A stretch of DNA of 64,000 bases from a virus. Both the position numbers and the translations under genes were made by a program. The notes below the pieces were generated by a model that saw nothing but the letters and a program-made list of their open reading frames with translations, searched no databases and had not been told where the DNA came from. Shown piece by piece: positions 1-8,223 of this stretch (its first letter is position 1; every line of letters begins with the position of its first letter). The stretch lies in IMG/VR virus record IMGVR_UViG_3300038321_000157, positions 7,929-71,928 of that record. The stretch is one strand, 5' to 3'.

Positions 1-1
1 A

Positions 2-175
2 ATTAAAGAATGTAGAAGATTATTAAATCGTATTATGATTGAAGCAGTTCAAGATGAAAATTGGGATGGTGACAATTTTACTAGACCATTAAATGAAATT
101 GCAGAATTAGAAAGAGAAGAAAAGAAATTATTTTGGAATAAAATGCGTGACAATATTGATGGTTGGTGGGATTAG
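2..175 (+). CDS. 3' end of hypothetical protein (ends ...NIDGWWD), truncated by window start
   Basis: Open frame from base 2 to TAG at 173-175. Confidence 0.7.
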   Translation: MKECRRLLNRIMIEAVQDENWDGDNFTRPLNEIAELEREEKKLFWNKMRDNIDGWWD

Positions 176-220
176 AGTAAAATCTAATTTTCATTTTAAA
201 AATAATTGGAGGTGTATATA

Positions 221-589
221 ATGTGTATGGCAACAATATTATCATTTAACTTACTTGAAACAGTGACTACAATAAGAAAAACAAGTAAAGATTTAAACGA
301 ACAATTATCTACCATAGATAAAACTATTTGTGATTTAGAACACGAAATTATGCTTAATAAATTTGATGTATGCAGAGGATATAAGAAATTCAAACAGCTT
401 CAAGATGCTCTGATAGAAAGACGTCAGATCAAAGACGAATGGGAGTTAATTCAACCTTTAATTGCTTATACTGGAACTATAGAAAAGAAAGTAAATGAAT
501 TACATAATACAATTAATGAAAGAGAAAGTAAATATGAGAATAGAAAATATACACCAAGAGTTTTGAAAGGAGAATTAAATGCTAGTTGA
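221..589 (+). CDS. Hypothetical coiled-coil protein
   Basis: ORF track 206..589; start moved to ATG 221 after GGAGGT at 208-213. Confidence 0.7.
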   Translation: MCMATILSFNLLETVTTIRKTSKDLNEQLSTIDKTICDLEHEIMLNKFDVCRGYKKFKQLQDALIERRQIKDEWELIQPLIAYTGTIEKKVNELHNTINERESKYENRKYTPRVLKGELNAS

Positions 590-1185
590 TTGAAACCTGG
601 ATTTTAGTATTTTTATATAGTTGGAAGAAAAAATTAAACATTAAATTAATCTTTTATGATTGGCCTATATATTTCCCGCTGATTTGTTTAATAGGATACA
701 TAGTTTTTGAAGTAATGATATTTAATGACCAATACTGGATTACACAATATGGAACTATTATTAAACCAGTAACTTTGCTTAGTTATTTTGGATTGATGTA
801 CAAATATAATCTTTATTATTCGCAGAATAAAAGTAAAAGTGAATTAGTAAGGTTTTTAATTTCTCCTTTTATAATAGGAATTATTTTCTTGGTTTTAGGT
901 TACATTTTCAACGGAATAGCGATTTTAAGCAACAATGGCCACATGCCGGTATTTCCCTCTTATACATATTTTACAAATTATACGGATATATCTAGTTTTA
1001 CTGAAGATAGTTTTTATATCTTAGGGGATCATACAAGTAAAGCGATTTGGGCTTGCGATTGTATAGACATTTTTTATTCCAATTTAAGTTTGGGTGATGT
1101 ATTCGTAAGAATATATGTTGCAATTTTGATTTATTTTTCGATAAAAAGAGTGAACGAAAAACATAAAATAAATATAAATGTGTAG
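586..1185 (+). CDS. DUF5317-like membrane protein
   Basis: Several hydrophobic segments; 'NGIAILSNNGHMPV' and 'LSLGDVFV' match the family pattern as recalled. Confidence 0.65.
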   Translation: MIETWILVFLYSWKKKLNIKLIFYDWPIYFPLICLIGYIVFEVMIFNDQYWITQYGTIIKPVTLLSYFGLMYKYNLYYSQNKSKSELVRFLISPFIIGIIFLVLGYIFNGIAILSNNGHMPVFPSYTYFTNYTDISSFTEDSFYILGDHTSKAIWACDCIDIFYSNLSLGDVFVRIYVAILIYFSIKRVNEKHKININV

Positions 1186-1205
1186 ACAAACAGCAATAAT
1201 TCTGC

Positions 1206-1235
1206 TAATATGTAATTAGAAAATATTACATATTA
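1206..1235. promoter_or_regulatory. Perfect 11-bp inverted repeat directly before the RBS of the receptor-agrD operon (candidate operator or hairpin)
   Basis: TAATATGTAAT (1206-1216), 8-nt spacer, ATTACATATTA (1225-1235); RBS AAGGAG follows at once. Confidence 0.5.
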
Positions 1236-1250
1236 AGGAGTTGTTGGGAA

Positions 1251-2051
1251 ATGCATAGTGATATATTTAATGCAGTAATGAATACCATATTCGTAAGTAT
1301 TCCAGAAAGTGTTTTATGGATTTTATTCGTATTTTTTCTCATGAAACGGAATGATTTATTGGATGTTTATAGATGGCAATATAATTTGAAACAAATTATG
1401 ATTGCGGCAATTCCAGTATCTATAAGTATAAATGTAATGAGATATATTCTACACGTAAATAATTTAATAAATTTTATTATTATAGAAATAATGATGATTA
1501 TATTAATTGTTTACATAATTAAAAAAAATAATTTTTTAAATGAAAAGATTAGTTATTTAAAAATAGTAATTTATGTAATGCTTGCGGATTTTATTATGAT
1601 TTTTACCACAGAAGGATTATTAGGTTTAATTATAATTCAAATGTTGCATATGAGTATAGATGTAATTAATAATAATATTGGATTAAATATAACTTTATCA
1701 CTTATACCAAGGACGGTACAAATTTTATTAATTAGTTTATGTATATATAAACAAAACGTTGGTAAAATGATTAATTATGTTGAATTAATTTTAAGAAATA
1801 AGATATTGTCAATATCAATGAGTGTGTTTTTAATAACAGTGATAATATCAAATTTTATTTTGCAAAGATTTGTTATGGCAACAAATTATTTAGATCATTA
1901 TATTATGTCAATTAAAATTGCTCTAATAGTATTAATGATAATAATCCCAATAATTATGATCGGGAGTTATATTTTTTCGATCTATAATCTTTTGTGGATT
2001 AATATAAAAACACAAAAAGAGAAAGATAATATGTTGAATGACATATATTAA
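1251..2051 (+). CDS. Polytopic membrane protein (about 7 TM) resembling an AgrC-type sensor domain, with no kinase domain
   Basis: 266 aa, hydrophobic almost throughout; no H-box or N/G1/G2 boxes; stop codon abuts the agrD RBS. Confidence 0.55.
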   Translation: MHSDIFNAVMNTIFVSIPESVLWILFVFFLMKRNDLLDVYRWQYNLKQIMIAAIPVSISINVMRYILHVNNLINFIIIEIMMIILIVYIIKKNNFLNEKISYLKIVIYVMLADFIMIFTTEGLLGLIIIQMLHMSIDVINNNIGLNITLSLIPRTVQILLISLCIYKQNVGKMINYVELILRNKILSISMSVFLITVIISNFILQRFVMATNYLDHYIMSIKIALIVLMIIIPIIMIGSYIFSIYNLLWINIKTQKEKDNMLNDIY

Positions 2052-2064
2052 AGGAGGTGAAATT

Positions 2065-2184
2065 TTGAAAAAATATCGTTTAATTGCAGGTTTAATAGGC
2101 ATCATAGCTATTGTTGGTGCTGGCATGGTGGCATCTCATACCCTATTCAACGAACCCCGCATCCCCTCCATGCTTTCTAAGTAA
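2065..2184 (+). CDS. agrD: AgrD-like cyclic lactone autoinducer propeptide MKKYRLIAGLIGIIAIVGAGMVASHTLFNEPRIPSMLSK (39 aa; not in ORF track)
   Basis: RBS AAGGAGGTGA then TTG; basic/hydrophobic leader, S-x-x-L-F core, x-E-P-x-x-P-x-x-L tail as in clostridial AgrD; AgrB lies 1.4 kb downstream. Confidence 0.85.
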   Translation: MKKYRLIAGLIGIIAIVGAGMVASHTLFNEPRIPSMLSK

Positions 2185-2210
2185 TTAAAATACCCTATCA
2201 ATACTCTAAA

Positions 2211-2248
2211 TTCTGTGCAGATTAATTTTTTAACTCTTCTGCACAGAA
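2211..2248 (+). terminator. 11-bp stem-loop after agrD (likely terminator)
   Basis: TTCTGTGCAGA (2211-2221) / TCTGCACAGAA (2238-2248). Confidence 0.55.
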
Positions 2249-2278
2249 TAATAATATAAAAATATCACCAAAAAACTA

Positions 2279-2307
2279 TTGCAATATTTTCCAGTAAATG
2301 ATACAAT
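2279..2307 (+). promoter_or_regulatory. Sigma-A-type promoter for the mazF-fusion/agrB operon
   Basis: TTGCAA-17 nt-TACAAT with extended TG. Confidence 0.7.
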
Positions 2308-2345
2308 GAAAATGTAAAATAAATAATATAGAAGGAGTGATTTAA

Positions 2346-3230
2346 ATGACAATGGCAATGAATATTTTGAATGAAGTGGAATTTAAAAAGAATATGGAAA
2401 ATGCAAAAACAGAATTATCAATTGCGCTAAAAATAGCAATTGGTCATCGTTCTGTTTCTCAGTTTGCAAGAGATTGTAGAATAGTAGATGTAACATTAAT
2501 CAATGATATTTTAAAAAGAAAGATTAATGTGTTACCTGAAAGAGATTTTTTAAGAATTGTTGAAAGAACCAGTGAAGGAAGGGTAACTTATACATATCTA
2601 TGTGAGATATGTGGTTACACCAAATGTGATCCTAATGAAGATAGGAGTTGGGCAAATTATCATCCAGAGCGTGGAAGTATTTATATGGCTGATTTAGGAT
2701 TGAATAACATGGATTCTGAACAAGAAGGGGTTAGACCTTGCCTTATTATTTCAAATAACATGGGGAATAAACATAGTAGTATAATAACAATTGCACCATT
2801 AACTTCAAAAAGGAAACATAGGTTGCCTGTCCATGTTGATTTAACAGTTCAGGATGGTATGAGACAGAATTCCATTATATGTTTAGAGCAGACTAGAGTG
2901 GTTTCTAAACGTAGGTTATTTTACAATGGTACACCCATGAAGATATTGAAATTAACTGAAGAAAAAATAAATGAAGTTAATATAGCTATTGAAAAGCAAT
3001 TCGGGATTATTGATTTAATGTATAATCCAGATCATGCATTTGAATTGGTAGGACAGATCGAAACACTTGAACATAATATAAAAACGAAAAAAATTAAACC
3101 TTCCTTCTTATCTGAATTGCTTAATGGTAAACGTAAGGAATTAGTTACGTATTGTAAGAAATATAATAGGAACGAAAAGACGATTATTAATAATTACACA
3201 GGGACAAGAGATTTTGTGCCTGTAAATTAG
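2346..3230 (+). CDS. mazF: N-terminal HTH-like domain fused to a PemK/MazF endoribonuclease, with a C-terminal helical extension
   Basis: RGSIYMADL..SEQEGVRPCLIISNNMGN..IAPLTS..LPVHV..SIICLEQTRVVSKRRL aligns by eye with B. subtilis EndoA, catalytic Arg (VRP) and Thr (LTS) kept; N-terminal 'AIGHRSVSQFARDC' is XRE-like. Confidence 0.85.
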   Translation: MTMAMNILNEVEFKKNMENAKTELSIALKIAIGHRSVSQFARDCRIVDVTLINDILKRKINVLPERDFLRIVERTSEGRVTYTYLCEICGYTKCDPNEDRSWANYHPERGSIYMADLGLNNMDSEQEGVRPCLIISNNMGNKHSSIITIAPLTSKRKHRLPVHVDLTVQDGMRQNSIICLEQTRVVSKRRLFYNGTPMKILKLTEEKINEVNIAIEKQFGIIDLMYNPDHAFELVGQIETLEHNIKTKKIKPSFLSELLNGKRKELVTYCKKYNRNEKTIINNYTGTRDFVPVN

Positions 3231-3244
3231 GAGGTTGATAATAA

Positions 3245-3544
3245 ATGATTGATGAGTTAGAAATTAAAAGTTTTGATGCTAGGTTTGGAACCAGATCAAA
3301 AGTGTTTCAATGCACTAATACGATTGTTATAGAAACACCTTTAGACAGTTGGATTGTAAAAGTTACGAACAGACAAACCAGACCACTATGTTTATTGCAT
3401 AAGAACAAATTTGGAAGAATAAATAAATACCACATTCAATCTTGGAAGACAAAAATGTTTCATGTCTATGATTCTATTTACAAACATAAAGGGATGCATC
3501 TTGTAGGTGCACCCAATACATATAAAGGTAGTCAAATAAAATGA
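3245..3544 (+). CDS. Hypothetical protein translationally coupled to agrB
   Basis: GGAGG RBS; ATGA overlap with agrB. Confidence 0.7.
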   Translation: MIDELEIKSFDARFGTRSKVFQCTNTIVIETPLDSWIVKVTNRQTRPLCLLHKNKFGRINKYHIQSWKTKMFHVYDSIYKHKGMHLVGAPNTYKGSQIK

Positions 3545-4134
3545 AAAAATATTTTCGGTACTTATACACCTTAAAATACATTAAATTACTCGCATATATG
3601 TCAGCAAGATCATTACAATTATCACGTAACGAGTCTCATAAACACAAATATATGTATTATTATGGATTTAATATTTTATATGGAGCAATTAATAAAGGAA
3701 CACTCCTTATACTGGCAGGATTATTATTCCATGCGTTACCCCAAATCCTTGTTACTACACTTGCGTTTATGTCACTTAGGGGTTTTATAGGGGGATTACA
3801 TTTTGATTCATATACAAAATGTGCCTGGATTTCATTGTTATGTTTGGTTTCAATAGGGTTATTAGCAAAATATATTCCTTACAATAATATTATAAATTTA
3901 TGTGTGTTTATTTATCTGTTAGTTATTGCTTTCATTTATGCACCAGTTGAACATAAAAATAGACCACTAACAGATAAGAAAAAAATAACTTTTAAATATG
4001 TATCCATTGTAATAATTTTTGCACTATATAGTGCTCAGGCCATAGTTAATAACGATAATATTAGTAATTGCATCATGTACGGTGTTTTATTATCGGGCAT
4101 TATCGCATTGCCAATATTTAAGAAAGTCAAATAA
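3541..4134 (+). CDS. agrB: Accessory gene regulator B-type membrane peptidase/cyclase
   Basis: YGFNIL, LRGFIGGLH..S..KC (catalytic His and Cys), IYAPVEHKNRPL; multi-TM. Confidence 0.9.
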   Translation: MKKYFRYLYTLKYIKLLAYMSARSLQLSRNESHKHKYMYYYGFNILYGAINKGTLLILAGLLFHALPQILVTTLAFMSLRGFIGGLHFDSYTKCAWISLLCLVSIGLLAKYIPYNNIINLCVFIYLLVIAFIYAPVEHKNRPLTDKKKITFKYVSIVIIFALYSAQAIVNNDNISNCIMYGVLLSGIIALPIFKKVK

Positions 4135-4237
4135 TGTCGTAAATTGTCTATAAGTTTAAATTGTAAAATCGAAATAATAGTTTTAAAATAAATTTATGGT
4201 TAATTTTGTTTATAATGTTTTAATTAAAAAATTTTAG

Positions 4238-4266
4238 TTGTATTTATTTGCCACAATGGTTATAAT
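4238..4266 (+). promoter_or_regulatory. Sigma-A-type promoter
   Basis: TTGTAT-17 nt-TATAAT. Confidence 0.55.
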
Positions 4267-4338
4267 AAACAGAACAGTTGTTCTATATTAACGATGGAGT
4301 GATGTTAGAGGAATAGTGTAAAGGAGGCTTTATAATTA

Positions 4339-4566
4339 ATGTCAAATTCAAATCAAATGGTATGGGTTATTCGAAATAGGGATGGGTATTTTGTTAATGC
4401 AGACTTCAGAGCGTTATTTAATGGAAGAACAACAGGATTTGTTGGATATACAAATAAGGATAGGATGCAAAAGGATTTAGATAAGTTAGGTGAATTAGGT
4501 GAAGGGTATTATAGCGAACAGGTTTGTTTGAATGAGATTCCTAAAGGGGTAAGGATATATACATAA
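4339..4566 (+). CDS. Hypothetical protein
   Basis: ORF with AGGAGG RBS. Confidence 0.65.
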   Translation: MSNSNQMVWVIRNRDGYFVNADFRALFNGRTTGFVGYTNKDRMQKDLDKLGELGEGYYSEQVCLNEIPKGVRIYT

Positions 4567-4638
4567 AGGATATTTTAATCTGTAATATTAAATAAATAAA
4601 ATATAAAATAACAAATAGAAAGGAGAAGGAATTGTTTA

Positions 4639-5379
4639 TTGGGTAGAAAAATAATAGATTTAACGGGAATGAATTTTGAGAAATTAACAGTAATAAAAAG
4701 AGCAGAAGATTATATTTCTCCAAATGGGAAAACACAAACACAATGGTTATGTGAATGTAGTTGTAAAGATAAAAATAAAATTATTGTAACAATGGGACAT
4801 TTAACTTCTGGAAAAACTAAATCATGTGGGTGTTTAAGAAAAGAAAATATGAGTAAATTATTTAAGAAATATAACACATATGATTTAACTGGAGAATATG
4901 GAGTAGGTTATACATTAAAAAATGAACCATTTTATTTTGATTTAGAAGATTATGATTTAATTAAGGATTATTGCTGGAGTTTAGATAAAAATAAATATGT
5001 TATAACAACTTTAAACAAAGAAAAAGAAAAAACTACTTTACTTATGCATCGTTTAATCACAAATTGTTCTAATGATATGGATGTAGACCATAAATTTCAT
5101 GATCATTGGGATAATAGGAAAGAGTTTTTAAGGATAGCAACAAGAAGTCAAAATGGTATGAATAGTGGTTTACAATCTAATAATACTAGTGGTGTAACAG
5201 GAGTATATTGGAACTCGAAAAATGAAAAATGGAGAGCACAAATAACAATAAATAATAATAAAATACAATTAGGGTCTTTTGATAATTTTGAAGAAGCTGT
5301 TGAAATTCGTAAACAAGCTGAAATAGAATATTTTGGTGAATATCAATATAAAAACATTAAATCATCTGGGAAAAAATAA
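4639..5379 (+). CDS. HNH-AP2 homing endonuclease with N-terminal Cys module
   Basis: DLTG..WLCECSC..SCGC; MHRLI..VDH..DNRKEFLR; AP2 signature SGVTGVYW..KWRAQI..LGSFD..EA. Confidence 0.85.
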   Translation: MGRKIIDLTGMNFEKLTVIKRAEDYISPNGKTQTQWLCECSCKDKNKIIVTMGHLTSGKTKSCGCLRKENMSKLFKKYNTYDLTGEYGVGYTLKNEPFYFDLEDYDLIKDYCWSLDKNKYVITTLNKEKEKTTLLMHRLITNCSNDMDVDHKFHDHWDNRKEFLRIATRSQNGMNSGLQSNNTSGVTGVYWNSKNEKWRAQITINNNKIQLGSFDNFEEAVEIRKQAEIEYFGEYQYKNIKSSGKK

Positions 5380-5418
5380 ATTAAATCACTAAAATAAAAT
5401 TAACACATGTATATTTGC

Positions 5419-5448
5419 TTGACATTTTGTATATACTGGTAATATAAT
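5419..5448 (+). promoter_or_regulatory. Sigma-A-type promoter for the DGQHR/repressor operon
   Basis: TTGACA-18 nt-TATAAT. Confidence 0.55.
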
Positions 5449-5470
5449 TACATATGAAAGTATATAGGGG

Positions 5471-6799
5471 GTGTCAATAATGGTTGGAAACAAAGAAGAA
5501 CAATTAAAAAATAAACTAAAAAATGTTATCCGTGAATTTGGGTATGACAATAGTACAAAGCAGTTTGTAATGGATGAATTTAAATTACGTAATTTATCAT
5601 CCTTAAGAGCTGCTTGGGTTTTTTCTGAAAATCTTGATCTGGATACTCTAACAGAATCAGAAGATGATGCCCAATTTTTATATCTATTTTCTTTTGCTCT
5701 TAATAAAGCATTAAAAGAAAAAGATATAAATATTTTGAATGATTATCAGAGTTATTTTACCAGTGTTGAAATTAGTGAATGGGAAAATTATAAAGAAGAA
5801 AAAGAATCTGAAGATATTTTCCCTTATAATTTAAAAGATGTACAAGAAATTGTTCCTGGTCAACAATGGCAAACTAAACTTACTATACAACAATTTAATG
5901 AATTATATAATGTATTACTTTGGAATCCCAACTCACAAAGGGGATTTAAGGTAACGAAAAAAGCAATTAGAATTAATGAAAATCCTCTAAAGGTTAAAGA
6001 AATAGCAGAGAATATACTTGCAGGAACATATTATCCTGACCATATTAAAATTAATGTTGTAAAAGACGAAAATAAACCTATTTATAATCCTAAAACGAGA
6101 ATGTTAACTTTAAGGGAAGGGACAAAACTTAATATTTGGGACGGTCAACATCGAAAATCTGCAAGTGCATTAGTCTTGGTAGAAAATCCCGATATAGATT
6201 TTACATGGCCTATAGATATCACAAATCTATCAGAGATTGAAACTCACAATGCGATGGTACAAATCAACAAACAAAGTCCAATTAAACTTGATGTTATATC
6301 TACTAAAGACTATTCCAAAAATGAAAATTTAGTGCTTGATAAGATTATGGATAGTCGTGGAGATTTAGCAAGCGCAACAAAAGATACAGATGCATTTGTA
6401 AAGTCAGATCGTGCTTTAACCACAAAACCTATCCTTGCCGAAGCTATTAAAGATAATTACGATAATTTAGATTCAGCTATGCAACGTGATGAAGTTGCTA
6501 AATGGATAGTTGAGTTTACAAACTACCTCATGGGTGTCTACTCAGATGAGTTTATTGTCAATCCTTATGAAGTAAAGAAAACTTCCTATATTAATAACCT
6601 AAATATGTTCTATGGATATATTGCTCTTTCCGCAATATTGAAAGATAATAAAAATTGGAAAGAAATTCTTAAACAAAAAATTAACTCAATTGATTTTTCC
6701 GTAGACAATCCTATGTGGCGAGAAATAGGGATTATCAAAGAAAACAAAATTGGTAAACCTACAAAGAATAAACTCTATAAACTTTTTATGGAGGTGTAA
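5471..6799 (+). CDS. DGQHR (DndB-like) domain protein, SPbeta YopQ-like
   Basis: IWDGQHR motif; lies directly upstream of the MrpR-like gene as in SPbeta. Confidence 0.75.
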   Translation: MSIMVGNKEEQLKNKLKNVIREFGYDNSTKQFVMDEFKLRNLSSLRAAWVFSENLDLDTLTESEDDAQFLYLFSFALNKALKEKDINILNDYQSYFTSVEISEWENYKEEKESEDIFPYNLKDVQEIVPGQQWQTKLTIQQFNELYNVLLWNPNSQRGFKVTKKAIRINENPLKVKEIAENILAGTYYPDHIKINVVKDENKPIYNPKTRMLTLREGTKLNIWDGQHRKSASALVLVENPDIDFTWPIDITNLSEIETHNAMVQINKQSPIKLDVISTKDYSKNENLVLDKIMDSRGDLASATKDTDAFVKSDRALTTKPILAEAIKDNYDNLDSAMQRDEVAKWIVEFTNYLMGVYSDEFIVNPYEVKKTSYINNLNMFYGYIALSAILKDNKNWKEILKQKINSIDFSVDNPMWREIGIIKENKIGKPTKNKLYKLFMEV

Positions 6800-7837: not shown

Positions 7838-8223
7838 TCTTAGAAACAATGTGGCAAAGATATAAAATACTAATATATCTAAAAAGTGAATTAGTGAAGA
7901 AAGGGTATAATTTTAAATCCCTTACTTATATCAATTCACAGATTGAATTATTAAATATATTAATCAAAGAAGAAAGTTTTAATCAATTAGAACAAATACT
8001 CCGCAAAACGAATTATAGACTTCTTAAACAAATAGAAAAAGGTGAGGAAAATTTAGTGAGTATTGTTAATCATCCTGAACAATGGAGATTATGTAAAATT
8101 GATGAACATTGTAATGAATGGTTAAATAATAACTCACTTATTTTTTCCACAGAACGAGGAGAATTTTTAGCATTTACTCAAAGTGAGTATGGACAACAAT
8201 ATATTAATAATAAATGGCAGTAA
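7834..8223 (+). CDS. Hypothetical protein
   Basis: ORF track 7783..8223; ATG 7834 overlaps the previous stop (ATGA). Confidence 0.65.
   Translation: MILETMWQRYKILIYLKSELVKKGYNFKSLTYINSQIELLNILIKEESFNQLEQILRKTNYRLLKQIEKGEENLVSIVNHPEQWRLCKIDEHCNEWLNNNSLIFSTERGEFLAFTQSEYGQQYINNKWQ

Follow-up and report, generated by a model that had tools for sequence, protein, structure and literature searches.

The left end of a 64,000-nucleotide stretch of viral DNA (positions 7,929 to 71,928 of IMG/VR record IMGVR_UViG_3300038321_000157), called the window below, includes the genes of a peptide signaling system of the agr type and raises the question of which protein receives the signal. The window comes from a 139-kb virus record, rated complete, of a large Clostridium-type phage, and a Pfam-type domain search detected no HATPase_c, HATPase_c_5, LytTR or Response_reg domain anywhere in this record. 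The gene directly upstream of agrD encodes a 266-residue protein (1251-2051; all coordinates are positions in the whole window), which is named X here. A first-pass annotation of this DNA had described X as a possible AgrC-like receptor that lacks a cytoplasmic output domain and is paired with the DUF5317-like protein encoded ahead of it. Judged from its sequence relationships, X is a histidine-kinase sensor domain of the AgrC type to which no kinase is attached. We assign a probability of about 0.55 to the reading that it receives the phage's own cyclic peptide without a kinase and signals by protein contact.

Family, fold and topology of X

As the first-pass annotation had stated, X is hydrophobic almost from end to end. 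Kyte-Doolittle peaks extend throughout the protein, and the AlphaFold model built from a 53-sequence alignment (predicted local distance difference test score, pLDDT, 93.8) consists of seven long helices, the last of which (219-265) extends beyond the membrane. About 14 Lys and Arg residues are located in or adjoining loops 31-40, 91-104 and 167-184 and the C-terminal tail, while the N-terminus and loops 67-71, 133-150 and 211-220 have none inside and are flanked by R64, R206 and K222. By the positive-inside rule, the predicted topology is therefore N-out, C-in. The reported absence of HisKA and HATPase domains was also borne out, since Pfam found no HisKA, SPOB_a, HATPase_c or HATPase_c_5 in X. 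There is no DHp phospho-accepting histidine; the chain stops at residue 266, some 16 residues past helix 7, and the tail of its close relatives has no histidine.

Neither the single sequence nor a 53-sequence profile of X matched Pfam, NCBIfam or PDB chains or produced a usable PHROG match. When 1.8 billion representatives were searched exhaustively with phmmer, 71 cluster representatives were recovered, all of them 250-326 amino acids long and none fused to a kinase, and 19 close relatives share 52-82% identity with X. These 71 relatives and the conserved synteny show that the X gene is real. In databases the members of the family are named "hypothetical", apart from one that was automatically labeled "signal transduction histidine kinase", and a literature search, which was not exhaustive, found no earlier description of kinase-less AgrC sensors.

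Structure searches with the model were negative. Foldseek against the PDB found nothing below E 3.5, a wide VIA-align search returned only generic helical hairpins (Z <8), and in the ESM Atlas the shape search stayed at TM scores of 0.33 or less and the feature search reached only "hypothetical" clusters. A match to a transporter or protease, which the first-pass annotation had set against a sensing role, did not emerge from any of them. The family lacks a common conserved Cys, His or Ser (alignments A1 and A2), a finding that disfavors a protease or cyclase role. Two specific candidates were rejected. An AgrB-like protease was discarded because X has no Pfam match, because an hhalign comparison of profile A2 with AgrB gave 0.3% and because there is no conserved His/Cys pair. 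A CPBP/Abi (MroQ-like) protease was discarded because EExxxR, FxxxH and HxxxN, a conserved His and a Pfam match are all missing.

Homology of X to the sensor domains of kinases

Three independent lines of comparison connected X to kinases. Firstly, positions 4-261 of profile A2 aligned with residues 1-259 of a 463-residue kinase (88.6 bits, E 8e-29) that continues into HisKA_3 and HATPase_c domains; its gene is located just downstream of agrD at locus L117, in a genome that belongs to the same family as the metagenome-assembled genome (MAG) G509 discussed below. Secondly, A2 aligned over 160 columns with N-terminal sequences of a genuine AgrC (SPOB_a plus HATPase_c_5) from an agrC-agrB-agrD locus (hhalign 91%, E 1e-6), and the controls gave 0.2% with reversed sequences, the value already cited with AgrB and 0.5% with DUF5317. 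Two more HPK10 kinases of the same domain composition are collinear with X, and one of them also has the helix-1 motif V-S-V-P-E-S. Thirdly, two unrelated genomes encode a split AgrC, in which a five-helix protein of 171-178 residues (mini-X) is followed by a two-helix kinase of 300-302 residues composed of SPOB_a and HATPase_c_5, with AgrB or a LytTR regulator adjoining. Mini-X matched helices 1-5 of X (hhalign 97.6%, E 3.8e-12). From these three lines it follows that X represents a complete seven-helix AgrC-type sensor that ends about midway through the linker leading to the H-box, and the best explanation is that the kinase half was lost or never present. The comparison with AgrC sensor domains that the first-pass annotation had proposed was thus positive at the level of profiles, with controls below 1%, but not in the Foldseek search.

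A word-index search for longer fused forms of X, covering the range 572-2000 amino acids, found none, and genome searches recovered fused X-type kinases of 430-470 amino acids. At L117, where such kinases follow an X-like protein and agrD (Table 1), an agr-like peptide is wired to a two-component system that is not of the LytTR kind.

Pairing of X with AgrD in bacteria

Of 399 Clostridia genomes sampled, about 13 contain X, often in two or three copies; among Bacilli it was found in one of 301. At 22 of 26 loci an AgrD-like open reading frame (ORF) follows directly on the same strand, sometimes overlapping X; these ORFs have a Ser or Cys, four more residues and then a Q/E-P-x-x-P tail. AgrB is encoded within 6 kb of X in only about 11 of the 26 loci. 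X is therefore linked to AgrD more tightly than AgrB is. This receptor-then-peptide order and the homology to kinase sensors both support the earlier suggestion of an AgrC-like receptor without an output domain.

One of the AgrD proteins encoded after X fits the residue numbering of the C. thermocellum lactone peptide (A24|S25...F29, Y30, P35); it comes from a related MAG and not from C. thermocellum itself. The C. thermocellum lactone peptide was verified experimentally, and its authors found no AgrB, AgrC or AgrA candidates (PMC5322536).

Soluble XRE-type proteins of about 200 amino acids with a second, degenerate helix-turn-helix (HTH) flank five of 21 bacterial X-AgrD pairs (Table 1). They are possibly a cytoplasmic partner or a local regulator. 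A relationship between them and the N-terminal part of the phage MazF fusion described below was not supported (hhalign 5.6%).

The failure of standard tools to find a family or structure match, and the buried polar residues conserved in close relatives (Glu19, Glu121 and Arg154), would fit an unrelated small-molecule transporter or a structural membrane protein that merely neighbors agrD. The strong profile match to kinase sensors and the adjacency of X and AgrD across very distant loci, however, make chance hard to credit, and we regard this explanation as highly improbable.

The phage cassette and the diversity of its peptide rings and of X

The short subfamily to which the phage protein belongs (258-277 amino acids) is embedded in one gene block in all ten contigs examined, down to 31% identity. 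By Pfam labels the order is DUF5317, X, AgrD, PemK fusion, AgrB and a DndB-like gene, and in the two loci that were read further a MrpR-type gene follows the DndB-like gene. In all ten contigs the cassette adjoins a lysogeny module of this DndB/MrpR (SPbeta) type. The DUF5317 slot was recognized by Pfam in nine of the ten contigs and is occupied by an unannotated ORF in the tenth; the PemK fusion that follows agrD (266-298 amino acids) is present in 10/10 cassettes. A 100-114-residue ORF occupies the position of the 99-residue ORF of the window in L002 and L113-L115, and is missing from L005 and L118-L120. In several related phages, a further stand-alone PemK/MazF gene, encoding 124-149 amino acids, is located a few kb upstream of the cassette.

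The predicted peptide rings of the phage relatives vary (SHTLF, SHLLF, SRHLL, SHSML, SHAFL, SHWFL and SRWVL). The variability of X, expressed as entropy, peaks in outer loop 3 and where helices 6, 7 and 4 reach the outer side (1.2-1.67), and is lowest in cytoplasmic loops 1 and 2 (0.46-0.60). A variable outside, a conserved inside and the receptor-then-peptide order are together the signature of a private signal-receptor pair. The loop-1 motif K-R-x-D-L-L-D is present in 34 of 58 short X forms and in none of 12 long ones, and an acidic tail around N-M-L/F-x-D in 27 of 58 and one of 12, respectively; instead of these cytoplasmic motifs, the longer bacterial forms have a helical extension of about 50-60 residues. 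Motifs specific to the cassette point to a cytoplasmic partner that is also specific to the cassette.

These features bear on the proposal that X is a decoy or dominant-negative protein, one that soaks up peptide or pairs in the membrane with a host AgrC-type kinase and so damps or rewires host quorum sensing. AgrC works as a dimer, the split forms show that an X module can act in trans with a two-helix kinase, a stand-alone X coexists with X-type kinases at L117, and the phage itself encodes no kinase, all of which would suit a decoy. On the other hand, the phage has its own AgrD and AgrB, and rings that diversify alongside the outer face of X fit a private pair better; there is no kinase in the vicinity of many bacterial X-AgrD pairs; and the cytoplasmic motifs that are conserved in the phage subfamily imply a partner in the cytoplasm. 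A decoy function is therefore quite unlikely.

Proposed mechanism and its strength

The reading that we favor, a receptor signaling by contact, would operate as follows. AgrB would cyclize the AgrD peptide to a serine-lactone pentapeptide that exits the cell. With accumulating infections, the peptide would bind the variable outer face of X, to which helices 4, 6 and 7 contribute their outer ends and which also includes the third outer loop. We infer this binding indirectly, from the adjacency of X and AgrD and from an outer face that varies alongside the rings. Since no kinase accompanies X, the output would have to be protein contact: a conformational change would be passed to a partner, with no phosphotransfer, via a conserved cytoplasmic surface made up of loop 1 (K-R-x-D-L-L-D), loops 2 and 3 and the acidic tail (Q-x-x-H/K-x-N-M-L/F-x-D). 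The likeliest partner in the phage would be the HTH-MazF fusion of the cassette, and its contact with X would tie the peptide level to the adjoining SPbeta-type lysogeny switch. Both this partnership and the effect on lysogeny are speculative; the arbitrium system of phi3T, which acts through MazF, can be cited as a precedent (PMC10769878).

Several observations weigh against this reading. X has no recognizable output domain, and its link to the MazF fusion consists solely of gene neighborhood. Only Pro18-Glu19 is conserved in at least 90% of the family, and the lack of a PDB or ESM Atlas relative means that there is no structural support. In the MAG G509, which encodes two X-AgrD pairs, AgrB was not detected, and no AgrB candidate was found for the orphan AgrD of C. 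thermocellum (PMC5322536). Finally, at L117 a stand-alone X-like protein precedes agrD despite the two X-type kinases downstream, so that a second receptor looks redundant, which hints at a modulatory or biogenesis role. L117 and the AgrB-less MAG therefore leave room for a helper of biogenesis or export, or for a modulator or decoy of kinases.

The same loci favor the alternative that X helps in peptide production by binding AgrD or the nascent ring and assisting AgrB, removing the leader or exporting the peptide. X is located directly upstream of agrD, the place of AgrB in agrBDCA operons, and the L117 order (X, AgrD, kinase, kinase, regulator) mirrors agrB-D-C-A. The hypervariable region of S. 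aureus takes in AgrB as well. G509 counts in the same direction, as does the mature lactone peptide that C. thermocellum makes without an identified AgrB (PMC5322536). Against a production role, X is homologous to sensor domains and not to AgrB, the family has no common Cys, His or Ser nucleophile, and no transporter fold was detected by Foldseek (PDB) or VIA-align. Furthermore, AgrB is encoded elsewhere in nine of ten X-AgrD genomes, and an AgrB gene is part of every phage cassette. We consider a helper of production unlikely and continue to favor a receptor.

DUF5317 and mini-X operons

The DUF5317 protein of the window contains NNGHMPV, which corresponds to the hallmark NxGxMPV / NGGxMPV, and SxGD. 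In a 31-sequence alignment, N116, G118, M120, P121, S168, G170 and D171 are invariant, and the N-x-G-x-M-P and S-x-G-D that they form fall in a predicted extracellular segment. Searches with its AlphaFold model (pLDDT 90.1) found no solved relative, and a literature search, again not exhaustive, found no paper on DUF5317. Complex prediction for X and DUF5317 gave a score of 0.00, which counts neither for nor against binding.

DUF5317 occurs in 77 of 399 Clostridia genomes, mostly in a single copy. At times it is the N-terminal part of proteins of 450-630 amino acids, the rest of which has no Pfam match. The first-pass annotation had put forward the pairing of X and DUF5317 as a possible clue to the function of the latter, and this stood in part. 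The pair is found in the nine phage cassettes mentioned and recurs with mini-X in the C. sporogenes/botulinum group, but none of the 30 best-scoring DUF5317 loci of Clostridia has agr genes beside it. Therefore, only a sub-branch, consisting of the phage cassette and the head of the C. sporogenes/botulinum-group agr operons, is agr-linked, and DUF5317 as a whole is not explained by the pairing.

The order in the C. sporogenes/botulinum group is DUF5317, mini-X (150 amino acids), AgrB, AgrD and a membrane GGDEF/HD-GYP enzyme. In the tandem array of G623, this enzyme (GGDEF plus HD-GYP) has about 570 residues, a second mini-X precedes a 617-residue PAS/HisKA kinase, and a third is followed by another AgrB-AgrD pair and a further membrane protein of this type. 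Two to four tandem mini-X genes are present in all nine species representatives of the C. sporogenes-group genus. The arrangement suggests a cyclic-peptide input into cyclic di-GMP signaling.

More broadly, X and mini-X might be detachable receptors that sense cyclic peptides in trans and have interchangeable outputs (two-helix kinases, HisKA kinases, membrane GGDEF/HD-GYP enzymes and the phage MazF fusion), serving as the receptors of orphan clostridial agrBD systems and as a kinase-free equivalent of arbitrium. We put this generalization forward tentatively and hold it to be doubtful as a whole.

Gene layout of the locus

All the genes from 206 to 4134 are on the plus strand at the left end of the window (Table 1). 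The DUF5317 gene has a TTG start, overlaps the stop of the preceding ORF and opens a DUF5317-X-agrD unit. The X gene starts with ATG preceded by AAGGAG, and its TAA stop (2049-2051) directly abuts the AGGAGG (2052-2057) of agrD, which has a TTG start at 2065; the earlier remark that X stops at the agrD ribosome-binding site was thus accurate. The 39-residue ORF had no NCBIfam match and was recognized as AgrD by inspection, with a hydrophobic/amphipathic leader, Ser plus HTLF and a Pro-containing tail, a layout that is the same in relatives.

The inverted repeat between agrD and the MazF fusion gene is possibly a transcript end or an operator. It splits the DUF5317-X-agrD unit from a MazF-orf99-agrB unit. 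A terminator scan did not report it because of the long loop and the lack of a T-run, and promoter-like sites were no commoner than in shuffled sequence. The PemK_toxin match of the fusion spans residues 108-219, and its PHROG label is MazF-like. The homing-endonuclease-like gene is not at the equivalent position in the sister phages L002 and L005. Megablast of positions 1-6000 against GenBank phages and a pattern scan of IMG/VR found no match.

Table 1. Features of the window (upper rows) and of the other loci named in the text (lower rows, given as locus:positions).
Feature	Position	Strand	Basis or remark
Coiled-coil ORF, 127 aa (amino acids)	206-589	+	ORF reading
DUF5317-family membrane protein, 199 aa	586-1185	+	Pfam PF17248, E 4.1e-11, 43.5 bits vs cut-off 25
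X, 266 aa, seven helices	1251-2051	+	Kinase-sensor homologue by sequence, without DHp or catalytic domain
AgrD-type propeptide, 39 aa	2065-2184	+	Predicted ring S-H-T-L-F, then N-E-P-R-I-P-S
Perfect 10-bp inverted repeat, 16-nt (nucleotide) loop	2212-2247	.	TCTGTGCAGA / TCTGCACAGA; between agrD and MazF-fusion gene
Fusion, 294 aa: N-terminal HTH-like region, PemK/MazF, helical tail	2346-3230	+	Pfam PemK_toxin, E 1.6e-21
ORF between MazF fusion and agrB, 99 aa	3245-3544	+	No family match (Pfam, PHROG, NCBIfam)
AgrB, AgrD-processing membrane protease, 197 aa	3541-4134	+	Pfam AgrB, E 1.2e-36; NCBIfam PRK01100, E 3.2e-16
HNH/AP2 homing-endonuclease-like gene	4639-5379		PHROG 99, E 1.6e-40; between agr cassette and 442-aa ORF
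ORF, 442 aa	5471-6799		Syntenic genes in sister phages DndB-like
Stand-alone PemK/MazF genes	L114:2006-2455; L115:871-1302; L120:785-1159		
Split AgrC loci	L036:513-1936; L107:1826-4673	-; +	
X-AgrD locus with kinases	L117:3567-11269		X-like 286-aa protein, agrD, two X-type-sensor/HisKA_3 (NarL-class) kinases, LuxR-type regulator, C39-peptidase ABC (ATP-binding cassette) exporter
XRE-type neighbors of X-AgrD pairs	L063; L064; L071; L072; L006		L006 form 114 aa, single HTH
Longer DUF5317 proteins	L111:798-3439; L108; L110		One adjoins a membrane HD-GYP protein
Tandem agr array	L105:6439-16003 (G623, C. sporogenes-group); also L112		

Significance and comparison with known systems

In many Clostridia no cognate agrCA accompanies agrBD; examples are the C. 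botulinum/sporogenes group, C. thermocellum and most C. difficile. The receptor of such systems was called "elusive" (PMC10602386) or "not identified" (PMC5322536). The X family provides concrete, testable candidates for these receptors, and the agr pairing is the first functional context for a branch of DUF5317. Quorum sensing through a sensor domain that lacks an enzymatic output would be unusual. The cassette also suggests that SPbeta-like clostridial phages swapped arbitrium for a membrane-sensed cyclic-peptide system wired to MazF and not to a two-component system.

The X system is a variant of agr signaling, not a new kind of system. With S. aureus AgrC and the other HPK10 kinases (VirS, FsrC), X shares a polytopic N-terminal sensor, the same predicted topology and profile homology; it adjoins agrD and agrB, and its outer-face variability tracks the peptide ring. 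Unlike them, it has neither the DHp histidine nor a GHKL domain and cannot phosphorylate, and the phage has no LytTR partner, a role that a host protein might fill. In the C. perfringens operon CPE1563-CPE1562-agrB-agrD, two uncharacterized "hypothetical" genes are co-transcribed ahead of agrBD (PMC2706048), a layout that resembles the C. sporogenes/botulinum-group operons. The DUF5317 and mini-X pair of the C. sporogenes/botulinum-group agr loci matches the phage pair, but mini-X comprises helices 1-5 only and is followed by AgrB-AgrD and then by a GGDEF/HD-GYP enzyme or a HisKA kinase.

Among phage systems, agr3 of the C. difficile phage phiCDHM1 (PMC3901668) also places agrD and agrB on a phage, accompanied by a putative receptor gene but not by a response regulator. 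Its "AgrC" is a protein of 445-453 amino acids with HATPase_c, in which its authors identified no receptor domain (PMC3901668), whereas X is the reverse, and the cassette described here adds DUF5317 and the MazF fusion. The arbitrium system of SPbeta and phi3T (AimR-AimP-AimX; PMC10769878) resembles the cassette in having a receptor gene followed by a peptide gene beside an SPbeta-type repressor module, and in an output that in phi3T runs via MazF (PMC10769878). The two differ in that arbitrium relies on a linear peptide that Opp imports and on a DNA-binding TPR receptor in the cytoplasm, while the cassette combines a predicted cyclic lactone, membrane sensing and a phage-encoded MazF fused to an HTH-like domain.

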